Origin: a virus
Length of the DNA: 7,179 nt
Strand: one strand, 5' to 3'
UHGV virus genome: UHGV-0269045
A program made the position numbers and the translations under genes. Below the pieces are notes generated by a model, which had not been told where the DNA came from, ran no database searches, and saw nothing but the letters and a program-made list of their open reading frames with translations. Shown piece by piece: positions 516-6,746 of this stretch. The first letter of the stretch is position 1, and every line of letters starts with the position of its first letter.

Positions 516-583
516 AATCAATGGGTTAGTCTTACTTTCCCGACATACCCCAATGGGGGTTTTCGAAATAATCAATGGGTTAG
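516..583. repeat. Two identical 14-bp direct repeats AATCAATGGGTTAG (516-529 and 570-583) with a third CAATGGG core between them (552-558)
   Basis: Read directly; 54-bp periodicity; candidate arm-type recombinase binding sites. Confidence 0.6.
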
Positions 584-2252: not shown

Positions 2253-2370
2253 GCAAAAACCTCGTTTTGAGGGGGTGTAACTTTTCGTGTAACTTTTTTG
2301 AAAAGCAAAATTTTCTACGAATGAGACGGGGGGCGGTGTCCAGGGCGATCGACTTTCCGGCCGGAACACT

Positions 2371-2743: not shown

Positions 2744-2831
2744 TTTGTTTCCTCCTGATACTTATCATCGCATAATCAGTATTTTCGATAGATTATCATT
2801 AATTAACCATTTTTGAAGATATGAGAGTTTG

Positions 2832-2855
2832 AAAAAAAGCCGGATTGCTCCGGCT
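2832..2855 (-). terminator. Rho-independent terminator on the minus strand
   Basis: Minus-strand RNA reads AGCCGGA-GCAA-UCCGGCU followed by U7 (plus strand shows A7 then gccgga ttgc tccggc); located 20 nt downstream of the 90-aa ORF stop. Confidence 0.7.
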
Positions 2856-2873
2856 ATGTGCTCACTCCTTCGG

Positions 2874-3146
2874 TTATTCTCCATTGCTTTTAACGTTGAT
2901 GGTTGTTACCTGTTCCGCTTCTGCAATCTCCCGCTCTGTCAGCGTGGCAAAGTTTGCCGCCGCCGTGGTCATGAATGCGCTTATTAGTTCGGGATGTGCT
3001 TTCGAGTATCCTTCTCCCGCTGTGATGTCTATCACCTTTATAGCCACCTTTAAGGCGTGCTCTGTCATCTCCAGCGCTTTATATCTTGGTGCTGTTCTGT
3101 CTTTGCGTTTTTTGAGTGATTTGTTAAATCTTCCTGATGTGTGCAT
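2874..3146 (-). CDS. Hypothetical protein (90 aa) with a basic N-terminus (KSLKKRKDRTAPRYK); apparently monocistronic between the ori repeats and a terminator
   Basis: ORF with protein-like composition, GAGGG about 11 nt upstream of the ATG, terminator immediately downstream; no recognisable family. Confidence 0.45.
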   Translation of the reverse strand: MHTSGRFNKSLKKRKDRTAPRYKALEMTEHALKVAIKVIDITAGEGYSKAHPELISAFMTTAAANFATLTEREIAEAEQVTTINVKSNGE

Positions 3147-3191
3147 TTTTATTTTTACCCTCGTGTTTAAAAAGTTTTAGGTTGTGGTGCA

Positions 3192-3420
3192 CCTCCTCTA
3201 CCTCTCTACCTAATCATCTTTCATGTCAGTAATGGCGCGGCTTTCAGATGGGTAGAGGGCTTTCGTGGCCCTCTACCCATCCTCTACCCGCCCCTCACAA
3301 ACGATCTTAATCATGGTAGAAGAGGTAGAGAGGTTTTATTAGCCTTCTACCTAGCCCTCTACCCACTTATCATGTTGAATAATATGCGTTTATTTCATCC
3401 AGGTAGATGGGGTAGAGGGC
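3192..3420. repeat. Iteron array (about 11 copies of CTCTACC / GGTAGAG in both orientations), putative replication origin bound by the adjacent primase/helicase
   Basis: Heptamer copies at about 3196, 3204, 3251, 3271, 3283, 3315, 3324, 3345, 3357, 3402, 3411; includes a perfect 11-bp inverted repeat GGGTAGAGGGC (3250-3260) / GCCCTCTACCC (3268-3278); begins 12 nt after the primase stop; no ORF. Confidence 0.7.
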
Positions 3421-3432
3421 TTTTACAAAAAA

Positions 3433-5181
3433 TTATAAAAACGCGTCACAATCATCAGTTGTAATTGCGTTGGTCTGCGTTACTCCCTTAACTCTCCGCG
3501 TAATATATTCATGCCCGTAAACTTTCGCCGCTGGCTTCATGGCCTTGCTGAACTCAGCCACGTTTAGCGGTTTGCTCCTGCCTGCGTATGCCATAAACGC
3601 CAGATAGACGCGGTAAAGGCTGTTCCTGGTCGTATACTTCACTGAATCACCACCGCCCCCCATCATCAGGCCGCGCGCTTCCTCCAGAAAATTCAGGAAC
3701 TGGCAAAACTCAATAACCGGATCCGTCTGTTGCTTTATCGCCAGTGCTTCATCACCGTCGCGCTGTTCCAGTAATAAAGCCCGTGCCTTTTCAGGGTCGG
3801 CAAAATTAGCCAGCAAGCGACGGATAATTACGGGGATTTCAGCCGCGACCTTCTCCGGCAAATCCTTGTCTTTTTCGTCCTCCCTTACAATGTTGTCGAA
3901 CCGGAAAATCACCCGACGGCGTGACACACCTCCGGCCCGCTCGGTGAATATCATCGGGTTATTGTTGGTAGCCAGCACCACCGCCCTGATTACCGCCGTA
4001 AAACGCTTCTCATATTTCGGGTTTATTTCCACGGGGTCGCCGCCCGTGATTTTCTTGATGCCCGTTCCTTCGCCTGTATATTTCGGCTGGTCAGCCAGGA
4101 CGATAAGACGACTCCCGACAACCTGCGCACGTCCACCAGCATCATCAAGTGAGGTCATTTCAGCGCTTACCGTGTTCTGTTTCCCTGCCAGAAGGCTGGC
4201 TATGTGCGTGAATGTACTTTTACCGCTACCGCCCTCTCCGGTGGCCTCAATAAACATCTGCCAGTCGTACCGGTTCGCCATAATCATGTACAGCGCGGCA
4301 CATATACGCATCATCTTTCGCGGGTCTTTTCCGGCTGCGTGCTCAAGCCATTTATGAAAGTTTGGCGCGTTGTCGCGAATGTTCTCCCCTGGTGCTGGTG
4401 GCGTGTACTCAATGCCGTTGTGCGTGGTGATCCAGTTCTCCGGCGTGTGCGGGGAAAATTCCCCCGCTTTCAGGTCAAGCACACCATTGGCGAACGGCAG
4501 CAAATCGCCTGACGGCTCCCCCATTGGTTCGGCAATAACTTTTAACGCTTCCACGGCGTTATTGATTACGCGCTTGCTGAAAGTGGCCCTGTGCTCTGAA
4601 TAGATCACCACCATTTCGCGGCTCAGCTCCATTGTGCTGACCGGACACCATACCCCGCCGCGCCATACGTGAACTATTTCACTTTCAGGATGTACGCAAA
4701 CGCCATCAAATCGACCAGCAAGCAGCTGGGCGCGCTCACTGTCTGCCATTTGTGCCAGTTGCGTATTTTTCTGCTCCGGCATGGTAAGCCCTGCGGCAAT
4801 ATTTTCACGCTCAGCATTCAGATAGCGCCGCCAGTTTTCACACTTCTGGGCGTGCATTCCTTCGGGGTAAAAATTTGTGTCCTGAATATCTGCTGCCGCC
4901 AGCTTCTGACCAATCTTTTTGGTCTCCACCAAGTCCAGTTCTCCTGCCTGGTACAGCCTTACGCGTTTTTTTCCATCAGGAACAATTTGCAGTGCATCAA
5001 GTTCGGCAAGCTGATTTGGCCCAAGCCACACAGGAGGCACATTATCGCCGGATGCGGGGCCGTCCTGCTCCTGCCACTGTTTTGCATGTGCCCACGCATC
5101 ACTACCCGCGAAAATAATCACCTCTGTGTCTTTGTGTTTTATTCCGCGTGGCTGTTTTTTTACGTTCGGTGCCAGTTTCAT
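3433..5181 (-). CDS. Replicative primase/helicase (P4 alpha-like / PICI Pri-Rep type): N-terminal primase-like region plus SF3-type P-loop NTPase
   Basis: 582 aa; Walker A GEGGSGKST around residue 320; N-terminal VIIFAGSDAW ... RVRLYQAGE resembles a toprim-like primase region; ATG overlaps the upstream gene's stop in an ATGA arrangement; iterons directly downstream. Confidence 0.85.
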   Translation of the reverse strand: MKLAPNVKKQPRGIKHKDTEVIIFAGSDAWAHAKQWQEQDGPASGDNVPPVWLGPNQLAELDALQIVPDGKKRVRLYQAGELDLVETKKIGQKLAAADIQDTNFYPEGMHAQKCENWRRYLNAERENIAAGLTMPEQKNTQLAQMADSERAQLLAGRFDGVCVHPESEIVHVWRGGVWCPVSTMELSREMVVIYSEHRATFSKRVINNAVEALKVIAEPMGEPSGDLLPFANGVLDLKAGEFSPHTPENWITTHNGIEYTPPAPGENIRDNAPNFHKWLEHAAGKDPRKMMRICAALYMIMANRYDWQMFIEATGEGGSGKSTFTHIASLLAGKQNTVSAEMTSLDDAGGRAQVVGSRLIVLADQPKYTGEGTGIKKITGGDPVEINPKYEKRFTAVIRAVVLATNNNPMIFTERAGGVSRRRVIFRFDNIVREDEKDKDLPEKVAAEIPVIIRRLLANFADPEKARALLLEQRDGDEALAIKQQTDPVIEFCQFLNFLEEARGLMMGGGGDSVKYTTRNSLYRVYLAFMAYAGRSKPLNVAEFSKAMKPAAKVYGHEYITRRVKGVTQTNAITTDDCDAFL

Positions 5182-6097: not shown

Positions 6098-6746
6098 CCC
6101 CCTGACGAATACGGGCGACAAAAATAAGATGTGCGTGCGGCAGCTGTGCGCGTGCTTCGCACTCAGTGGCAGCGGTAACGGTGAATATTGCAATGCTGTC
6201 TGTCAGGCACTGCATAAAGCGCCAGACAAAGTAAGGGCGTGCGGATACAGCCATGTGAAAGGCTCCCAGATGAATTTTAAGGAGTCTCGCTACTACGCTG
6301 TCAAACATGGTGGCGAGACGTAACAGGGTTGACAGACTGGTCATCTGGAAACCAGCGAGCACAAAGGCTCCCCCGTTACGCCCCGCCATAATGCGGGTAT
6401 GGGTAGGTTTACGGACACAAAAAAACCGCTTATCGGATGTGGGCGGCTGTCCGCCAGATGTATTCAGGCTGTCAAACCCGGTCGCCATGTGGGCGACGGG
6501 GGAAGCATACAGCCCCGTGATAATTTTTTGCAAGCGGTTTTTACGCATGATGTGACCCCTGACGAATACGAGCGGCAAATACAGCAACACAACCTGACGG
6601 GCAACGGCTACGCGCTTCGCGTTCCGTCCAGGCGGTTACGTGGATGATTTGAGATTCTCCGGCACTCAGTGCCAGAAAACGCCACACAAAGGCCGTTTGT
6701 GTGTACAAGGTGTGGTATATGATTTACGGCAACCATAACGGCTCCT
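6098..6746. repeat. Repeat-rich noncoding leader / regulatory region containing two diverged paralogous segments (about 6098-6266 and 6555-6745) that begin with an identical 15-mer
   Basis: CCCCTGACGAATACG at 6099-6113 and 6556-6570; further shared motifs GCACTCAGTG(G/C)CAG (6159-6172, 6662-6675), CTTCGC, CGGT(A/T)ACG, ACAAAGG and a terminal GGCTCC (6261, 6366, 6740). ORFs on both strands here have non-protein-like composition. Confidence 0.6.

Follow-up and report, generated by a model that had tools for sequence, protein, structure and literature searches.

Positions 3191–3420 of the window, which is the whole 7,179-nucleotide stretch of viral DNA that was analysed (UHGV virus genome UHGV-0269045), very probably constitute the replication origin of a Gram-negative phage-inducible chromosomal island (PICI), an allelic variant of the EcCICFT073 ori. 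Elements of this type have been described and tested before, as has a close homologue of the window array. The interpretation as a PICI or satellite ori, advanced in an earlier note on this DNA, is supported by homology to the genetically tested EcCICFT073 ori, by the domain homologies of the initiator protein (Rep) and by covariation between the repeats (iterons) and Rep. The genes of the window all lie on the minus strand and comprise an Icd-like gene, a DUF4222 gene, Rep, then the proposed ori, TerS (small terminase) and a capsid-like gene; int and alpA fall outside the window. A near-identical replication module occurs in L001 (99.7% identity for the array with its flanks), an island that also encodes an integrase and a helix-turn-helix regulator, and EcCICFT073 carries int and alpA. 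The features of the array and its neighbourhood are collected in Table 1.

Table 1 Features of the proposed origin and its neighbourhood, in window coordinates and in the order of the Rep gene.
Feature	Position	Strand	Remarks
Rep initiator gene ("Pri-Rep", 582 aa)	3433–5181	-	stop codon TAA at 3433–3435
Coding region of the C-terminal winged helix (residues 486–574), proposed iteron reader	3460–3726	-	1KA8 match
Whole iteron array, proposed ori	3191–3420		order in primase sense: >> AT-rich << >> << > block <<
Iteron pair 1, nearest the Rep stop	3402–3416	-	cores 3402–3407 and 3411–3416; unchanged across 10 E. coli elements, at 21 and 30 nt past the stop
One-mismatch heptamer copy, ATCTACC	3402–3408	-	
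AT-rich spacer between convergent pairs, candidate unwinding site	3364–3401		29% GC; 38 bp
Iteron pair 2	3346–3363	+	cores 3346–3351 and 3358–3363
One-mismatch heptamer copy, TTCTACC	3345–3351	+	
Iteron pair 3	3315–3329	-	cores 3315–3320 and 3324–3329
One-mismatch heptamer copy, TTCTACC	3315–3321	-	
Iteron pair 4	3272–3288	+	cores 3272–3277 and 3283–3288
Perfect 11-nt inverted repeat, 7-nt spacer	3250–3278		single iteron 3251–3256 (-) and iteron 3272–3277 (+)
Conserved non-iteron block CAGTAATGGCGCGGCTTTCAG (primase sense CTGAAAGCCGCGCCATTACTG)	3226–3248		near-invariant in 10 E. coli elements
Iteron pair 5, distal array end	3197–3210	+	cores 3197–3202 and 3205–3210
Conserved GTTTAAAAAGTTTT block, between array and next ORF	3165–3178		invariant in E. 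coli variants
Conserved 90-aa ORF directly after the proposed ori	2874–3146	-	final gene of the replication module that the islands share
Terminator-like hairpin after the 90-aa ORF	2855–2838	-	terminator scan

All eleven TCTACC/GGTAGA hexamers of the 7179-bp window lie inside 3197–3416 (220 bp), six on the plus and five on the minus strand, against 1.9 (1.89) expected and a maximum of 7 in shuffled sequence. The exact heptamer CTCTACC occurs eight times in the window, always between 3196 and 3417 (expected 0.36), and none of 200 shuffles reached this count. A scan allowing one mismatch added three heptamers within the array, which differ only at the first base, so that the previously reported number of about eleven copies in both orientations holds. 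The heptamer itself does not hold as the conserved unit; the invariant unit is the hexamer TCTACC, which in the window allele carries the flanks (C)(C)TCTACC(Y). The array was also correctly described as a 230-bp region without an ORF that starts 12 nt past the stop of the primase/helicase gene: counting its flank, the outermost repeat reaches position 3420, and no ORF of at least 40 aa overlaps 3181–3432. Likewise, the perfect palindrome reported within the array is present, with arms GGGTAGAGGGC (3250–3260) and GCCCTCTACCC (3268–3278) separated by seven nucleotides.

The iterons form tandem pairs spaced 8–12 bp, with alternating orientation. Opposed pairs of cores, two on the minus strand at 3402–3416 and two on the plus strand at 3346–3363, flank a spacer with a GC content of 29% vs 48% for the window. 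The spacer is off-centre, with two iterons on one side and nine on the other. Nowhere else in the window are k-mers locally clustered so densely, and the same holds for the array in two complete related elements. Internal higher-order duplication of the array was weak only (38–39% identity at offsets of 75–87 and ~ 150). A scan of the window with Rfam left the array empty and returned only a C4 antisense RNA elsewhere.

The genome of CFT073 is one of the blastn matches of the array, and the matching locus is EcCICFT073. The Rep of the window and the EcCICFT073 Pri-Rep are 89% identical overall, 96% in the C-terminal domain and 69% in residues 1–150. The intergenic region measures 286 bp in the window and 288 bp in EcCICFT073, and the latter contains 11 TCTACC cores, 10 of which have the same offset and orientation as in the window array. 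The remaining difference concerns the fourth iteron from the stop, which is flipped and moved (offset 86 on the plus strand in the window, 98 on the minus strand in EcCICFT073). The two regions also have in common the position 3′ of pri-rep, the AT-rich spacer and the CAGTAATGGCGCGGCTTTCAG block, and each is followed by a conserved small ORF; the 90-aa ORF of the window is 68% identical to the EcCICFT073 ORF and matched no family in Pfam or NCBIfam. On this evidence the array is homologous to the intergenic region of EcCICFT073 and matches it in position. The two elements also differ: the cores are flanked as CC-TCTACC in the window and as T(G/A)-TCTACC in EcCICFT073, a concerted difference; helix 3 of the C-terminal domain starts with AEFS in the former and NDFG in the latter; and the later module consists of TerS and capsid-like genes in the window island, whereas EcCICFT073 has SSB, PerC, capsid and decoration genes. 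Homology between the TerS-type and the SSB/PerC-type islands stops near position 2890.

The functional data come from EcCICFT073. In Gram-negative PICIs the origin has been assigned to the DNA directly 3′ of the gene for the initiator (Fillol-Salom et al. 2018, ISME J, PMC6092414). A plasmid carrying EcCICFT073 pri-ori, with pri-rep in cis, replicated, and the Δori and Δpri versions were defective; the effect reported for the ori deletion is a reduced number of colonies, abolition not being among the reported effects (PMC6092414). In a second study, CFT073 primase supplied in trans together with the "primase ori" made a conditional replicon (bioRxiv 10.1101/2022.09.30.509847).

Ten E. coli elements, namely the window and nine loci whose array identity ranges from 99.7% down to <75%, were compared. 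Each of the ten contains 9–11 TCTACC cores, nearly always in like orientation, at distances from the stop of 21, 30, 74–76, 86 or 98, 108–109, 117–118, 148–150, 159–161, 181–183, 226–229 and 234–238 nt. Invariant alignment columns make up 70% of core positions vs 25% of non-core positions. The counterpart of the 3364–3401 spacer is AT-rich in all E. coli variants although its sequence diverges. The palindrome arms are not conserved in the relatives outside the cores; since only the cores and an adjoining GG(G) are kept, the palindrome represents two convergent iterons rather than a conserved hairpin.

The 582-aa Rep comprises an N-terminal α/β domain (residues 1–135), a D5_N domain, an SF3 helicase and a C-terminal winged helix. 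It matches the Pfam families D5_N, DUF5906 (SF3 helicase) and Pox_D5 as well as TIGR01613, and its Walker A motif is GEGGSGKST. Residues 188–437 match PDB entry 7OLA (E 1.7e-14), and residues 486–574 match PDB entry 1KA8 (phmmer, E 5.4e-6). The former is SaPI5 PriRep, which uses its C-terminal winged helix to bind iterons that surround an AT-rich centre directly behind rep (PMC9371898), and the latter is described in PMC2777425, citing Yeo et al. 2002, as the winged-helix origin-binding domain of the phage P4 α protein. By its match, the C-terminal domain of Rep is homologous to the P4 α origin-binding winged helix. SaPI5 PriRep was also the top PDB fold match of the AlphaFold (AF2) model of Rep (pLDDT 87), in which helix 3 spans residues ~ 541–554 and the wing hairpin residues ~ 561–570.

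The N-terminal part of Rep is less informative. Residues 1–150 gave no match in Pfam or NCBIfam, and the model of residues 1–135 (pLDDT 92) had a best PDB match of E 0.07, which is not significant. The ~ 800-aa relatives, like P4 α, align to Rep only from residue 125–140 onward. DnaG and Twinkle gave weak matches short of significance, which were set aside as evidence. No primase catalytic domain was recognisable in the 582-aa protein by Pfam, NCBIfam or fold search, hence "primase" is to be read as a family label for Rep. As residues 1–135 have neither a family nor a fold match, priming is unaccounted for in the ori model.

A PICI ori has been defined by 6–12 penta- or hexanucleotide iterons right after rep and an AT-rich region with at least two opposed iterons on each side, and SaPI Reps bind iterons in EMSA (PMC9371898). 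The window array lies 3′ of the initiator gene and offers 11 hexamers and an AT-rich region with opposed pairs; its Rep is a predicted self-loading helicase with a C-terminal winged helix, and its iterons covary with Rep, a relation confounded by linkage and ancestry. The likeness to the ori of SaPIs and Gram-positive PICIs thus extends to the iterons after rep, the AT-rich region and the self-loading SF3 helicase with winged helix. In contrast, the SaPI arrays have no sequence similarity to that of the window, the AT-rich spacer is not central in the window array, and PriRep5 has a fused primase domain that the window Rep lacks.

Combining these features, we infer that the window allele of Rep binds the iterons and that 3364–3401 is the melting site. 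Upon induction the 582-aa Rep, a D5-like, self-loading SF3 helicase, would be made. Its winged helix (residues ~ 486–574) would recognise the 11 TCTACC iterons, here extended to CC-TCTACC-Y, and cooperative binding on convergent pairs would lead to the assembly of Rep hexamers. The hexamers would then melt the 38-bp spacer and begin to translocate as helicases, and the island would be amplified.

A scan of one genome per species yielded 80 loci from other genera, for 78 of which the downstream region (400 bp after the stop) could be analysed. Arrays were found in 38 of the 78 regions, with a median of 11 repeats, a start 22 nt after the stop and a span of 231 bp; the core types seen were TCTACC, GTGAACA, ATGAACA, CCCTAC, GGTATAC and CTGAACA. 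The commonest orientation order, >><>>><<<><<, occurs in 10 of the 38 arrays and is spread over three core classes. The median minimum GC over 35 nt in the arrays of other genera is 0.155, and in some relatives (L024, L026 and L033) the spacer is not AT-rich.

The type of core follows the C-terminal domain of the initiator. C-terminal-domain identity is 58% in pairs of the same core class vs 41% in pairs of different classes, a result reached by 0 of 5000 label permutations, and the corresponding values for the helicase core are 68% vs 66%; in these comparisons the core type goes with the C-terminal domain and not with the helicase core. On a finer scale, 9 of 587 residues separate the Rep of locus L013 from that of L014; five of the substitutions, two of which sit in the wing, fall within the final 86 residues, and T559N and V562M are among the changes. 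The iterons of the two loci at matching positions read GGTGTTCAT in L013 vs GGTATACAC in L014. Among the E. coli alleles, position -2 is occupied by C in 8–10 of 9–11 copies where helix 3 opens with AEFS, and by T in 10–11 of 10–11 copies where it opens with N(D/E)FG. Covariation of iteron and primase C-terminal sequence, a check proposed in the earlier note, is therefore found at three scales (genera, the L013/L014 pair and E. coli alleles), at all of which linkage (the C-terminal codons lie <300 bp away from the array) and common descent are confounders. That all copies should change in concert is nevertheless hard to explain without selection for recognition, which argues for function but is not proof of it. 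L030 and L085 have TCTACC-type iterons though their C-terminal domains are only 27–30% identical to that of the window; similarity of the domain as a whole is therefore no guide to the core, which must be set by a few residues.

One alternative is modelled on phage P4 and would make the array a crr-like cis enhancer that is bound by Rep, with synthesis starting at a separate origin elsewhere in the island. The P4 α protein binds its type 1 repeats. According to the annotation of NC_001609 the type 1 repeat is TGTTCACC, and ten copies directly after the α stop form crr (4291–4590), 4.5 kb away from the annotated ori. The crr repeats are found in both orientations from 45 nt past the α stop, and pairs of them flank an AT-rich stretch (NC_001609). 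The PICI array is in the position of crr and has a similar paired inverted layout. The P4 repeat TGTTCACC is used by L010, L068, L073 and other related islands. L010, an induced element of the Klebsiella type, has a Rep 41% identical to that of the window, a C-terminal domain that matches 1KA8 (E 2e-25) and, after Rep, ~ 12 copies of the repeat in a paired, alternating layout closely resembling the window array. The window shares with P4 the C-terminal winged helix homologous to 1KA8 but differs from it in the core, TCTACC rather than TGTTCACC, and in having one array rather than an ori and crr pair; the N-terminal primase domain of P4 α has no detectable counterpart in the 582-aa Rep. Against a separate origin, the complete elements L001 and L002 contain one array each, and neither a second TCTACC cluster nor another dense k-mer cluster was found in them. 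Moreover, the EcCICFT073 pri-ori fragment alone drives plasmid replication (PMC6092414), and with primase in trans the EcCICFT073 ori alone suffices (bioRxiv 10.1101/2022.09.30.509847). An enhancer acting on a distant origin is accordingly improbable, and the origin reading is retained.

It is similarly doubtful that the repeats serve mainly as operators for the 90-aa ORF and the packaging genes, through autoregulation by Rep or through another regulator. Plasmid iterons often double as operators, and a regulatory side role would be compatible with ori function. The array takes up all of the interval between Rep and the 90-aa ORF, no terminator lies within it, and the first terminator-like hairpin in the scanned region (2800–3700) comes after the ORF; array and ORF also travel together across islands with differing later modules. 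However, the same scan revealed no σ70-like promoter in or beside the array, and a like layout follows Reps with unrelated downstream genes, as in L010, where a capsid gene lies ~ 340 bp past the array end. In addition, ori function has been demonstrated for the homologous region of EcCICFT073.

That a cruciform or single-strand hairpins, rather than sequence-specific iterons, provide the priming or loading signal is highly improbable. The array contains the perfect 11-nt palindrome at 3250–3278, and as single strand it folds better than shuffled sequences (z = -7.7 for the window and -6.0 for EcCICFT073, with similar nested pairing), but inverted copies of a single motif will fold strongly in any case. 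Conservation points instead to the iterons: the palindrome arms vary outside the cores, whereas hexamer, orientation and spacing are kept and the hexamer covaries with the DNA-binding domain. An origin of the classical iteron plasmid type was also considered and rejected. Such origins (pSC101, R6K, P1 and F type) have 17–22-bp direct repeats, RepA-type initiators and DnaA/IHF sites. They resemble the window in placing repeated initiator-binding sites beside an AT-rich region, but in the window the cores are 6 bp long and face both ways, the initiator is an SF3 helicase, and neither a DnaA box (one mismatch allowed) nor an IHF consensus was matched in 3147–3432.

That the repeats cluster by chance, or are of a generic interspersed kind with no part in replication, is hardly credible, given that 0 of 200 shuffles reach the observed counts and that the BLAST matches, 579 places in 544 E. 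coli genomes, are all chromosomal, with 169 of 169 full-length array matches overlapping the end of a primase-family gene. The possibility raised in the earlier note, that the repeats might prove to be interspersed and unlinked to primase genes, thereby falls away. At the megablast level, 163 E. coli chromosomes match the array and its flanks; at the blastn level, 544 of 5426 E. coli genomes do, with no plasmid among the matches. The four partial array matches that were inspected all adjoin a primase-family gene, and elsewhere in the 5–18 kb loci there are only 0–2 isolated TCTACC cores per locus.

For the window island, the origin reading mainly confirms an annotation, and the homologous origin already serves as a conditional replicon, dependent on the primase, in non-replicating cosmids for gene delivery. 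Iterons and helix 3 start differ together from the EcCICFT073 pair, the iterons in all copies alike, and relatives in other genera have at least five other cores in almost the same layout, which would make these islands a ready source of orthogonal Rep/ori pairs; the differences would also be relevant to incompatibility between islands in one genome.

The near-invariant block at 3226–3248 has no place in the ori/iteron model and was counted against it. A motif comparable to this block, C[TA][GC]AAA[GA][CT]C, is found 193–212 nt past the stop in other genera, in the TCTACC and CCCTAC classes, and 16 of the 37 arrays in classes A, B and C contain AAACTTT, comparable to the block at 3165–3178. 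We tentatively consider a compact code, in which a few residues at ~ 542–545 and 559–570 (helix 3 start and wing) might set the iteron sequence and the class-independent block CTGAAAGCC (3226–3248) might be where loading or priming actually takes place, recognised by a conserved part of the machinery. If such a recognition code were true, it would provide mutually orthogonal, programmable conditional replicons and explain how several PICIs share a genome without cross-activation. Across core types the layout of the arrays is near-fixed, with ~ 11 sites over ~ 230 bp, and L013/L014 and the AEFS vs NDFG alleles represent natural near-isogenic switches.

Homology between islands carrying TerS (the window and the related locus L003) and those of the SSB/PerC type (L001 and L002, complete related E. 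coli elements) stops at ~ 2890, at the 3' end of the 90-aa ORF, which points to a shared replication module. The module common to both island types thus comprises DUF4222, the 582-aa protein named as a primase (Rep), the proposed origin (ori) directly 3' of its gene and the 90-aa ORF. The latter has no family match, and its counterpart in the E. coli CFT073 island EcCICFT073 is 68% identical. The features are listed in the table below.

Features of the island, in window coordinates
Feature	Coordinates	Strand	Remarks
Rep residues 1–135	4777–5181	-	Predicted α/β domain, confident fold
Non-iteron block CAGTAATGGCGCGGCTTTCAG	3226–3248		Near-invariant across 10 E. coli islands
90-aa ORF	2874–3146	-	Always next after the origin
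C4 antisense RNA	6306–6393	-	Rfam RF01695, 72.6 bits
a1/b1 target of C4 antisense RNA	6461–6510	-	Rfam RF03163, 46.8 bits (gathering score 46.7)
GTTACA/GTAAC repeat cluster	2022–2094 and 2276–2293		12-nt period; within small-terminase gene
Exact IHF-consensus sites (3)	158–170, 516–528, 570–582		Near left end, past capsid-like gene

Despite the name of the protein, no primase catalytic domain is recognisable in Rep. Its N-terminal 135 residues are kept throughout the family of 580–630-aa proteins and match nothing in Pfam, NCBIfam or the PDB folds; among the E. coli alleles they form the most variable part of Rep (44–98% identity).

The proposed origin contains a conserved block that is not an iteron. 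Its core, C[TA][GC]AAA[GA][CT]C, is found again 193–212 nt past the Rep stop codon in Rosenbergiella, Xenorhabdus, Symbiopectobacterium, Raoultella, Atlantibacter and Kluyvera. When arrays are grouped by iteron core, this sequence is present in the TCTACC and CCCTAC classes alike and absent from GTGAACA and ATGAACA arrays.

Iteron and Rep variation can be compared closely in L013 (Escherichia sp. ESNIH1) and L014 (Pseudocitrobacter faecalis), whose Reps differ at 9 of 587 residues; five of these substitutions, L502M, V514I, T559N, V562M and T579A, fall within the C-terminal domain. At equivalent positions of the array regions (L013:4265–4600 and L014:4265–4600) the iterons read GGTGTTCAT in L013 and GGTATACAC in L014, and L013 retains a few copies of the intermediate forms GGTATACAT and GGTATTCAT. 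GTCTACC-type iterons occur within 400 bp 3' of the Rep genes of L030 and L085 (E. ruysiae and Kluyvera georgiana), whose C-terminal domains share only 27–30% identity with that of the window, carry the insertion KGPDKGR in the wing and otherwise resemble the P4-like TGTTCACC group. These two loci may have reached a TCTACC-type core by an independent route.

Many ~ 800-aa relatives that resemble the phage P4 alpha protein (L037–L064 and other Xenorhabdus and Photorhabdus loci) lack a dense array in the 400 bp past the stop codon and have only 3–4 copies of GATGTATA/ATGTATAG there. By analogy with P4, most repeats of these loci may be clustered at another site.

Some E. coli genomes, including NZ_CP075852.1 (strain S19-651), contain up to 3–4 arrays of the TCTACC type. 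Their sequences indicate several PICIs with a common TCTACC core in one cell, where co-resident islands might activate one another or be incompatible.

An Rfam scan placed both C4 RNA and its a1/b1 target in the early region of the window island, where related islands have Icd-like genes. The pair is a predicted antisense immunity module of the P1/P7/P4 type within a PICI.

The GTTACA/GTAAC repeats encode KKVT-like peptide repeats and are marginally enriched (8 observed, 3.2 expected); the cluster is possibly pac-site-like. The three IHF sites compare with 0.4 expected and may belong to the attachment-site arm of the island; two of them are identical, AATCAATGGGTTA, and lie 54 bp apart.
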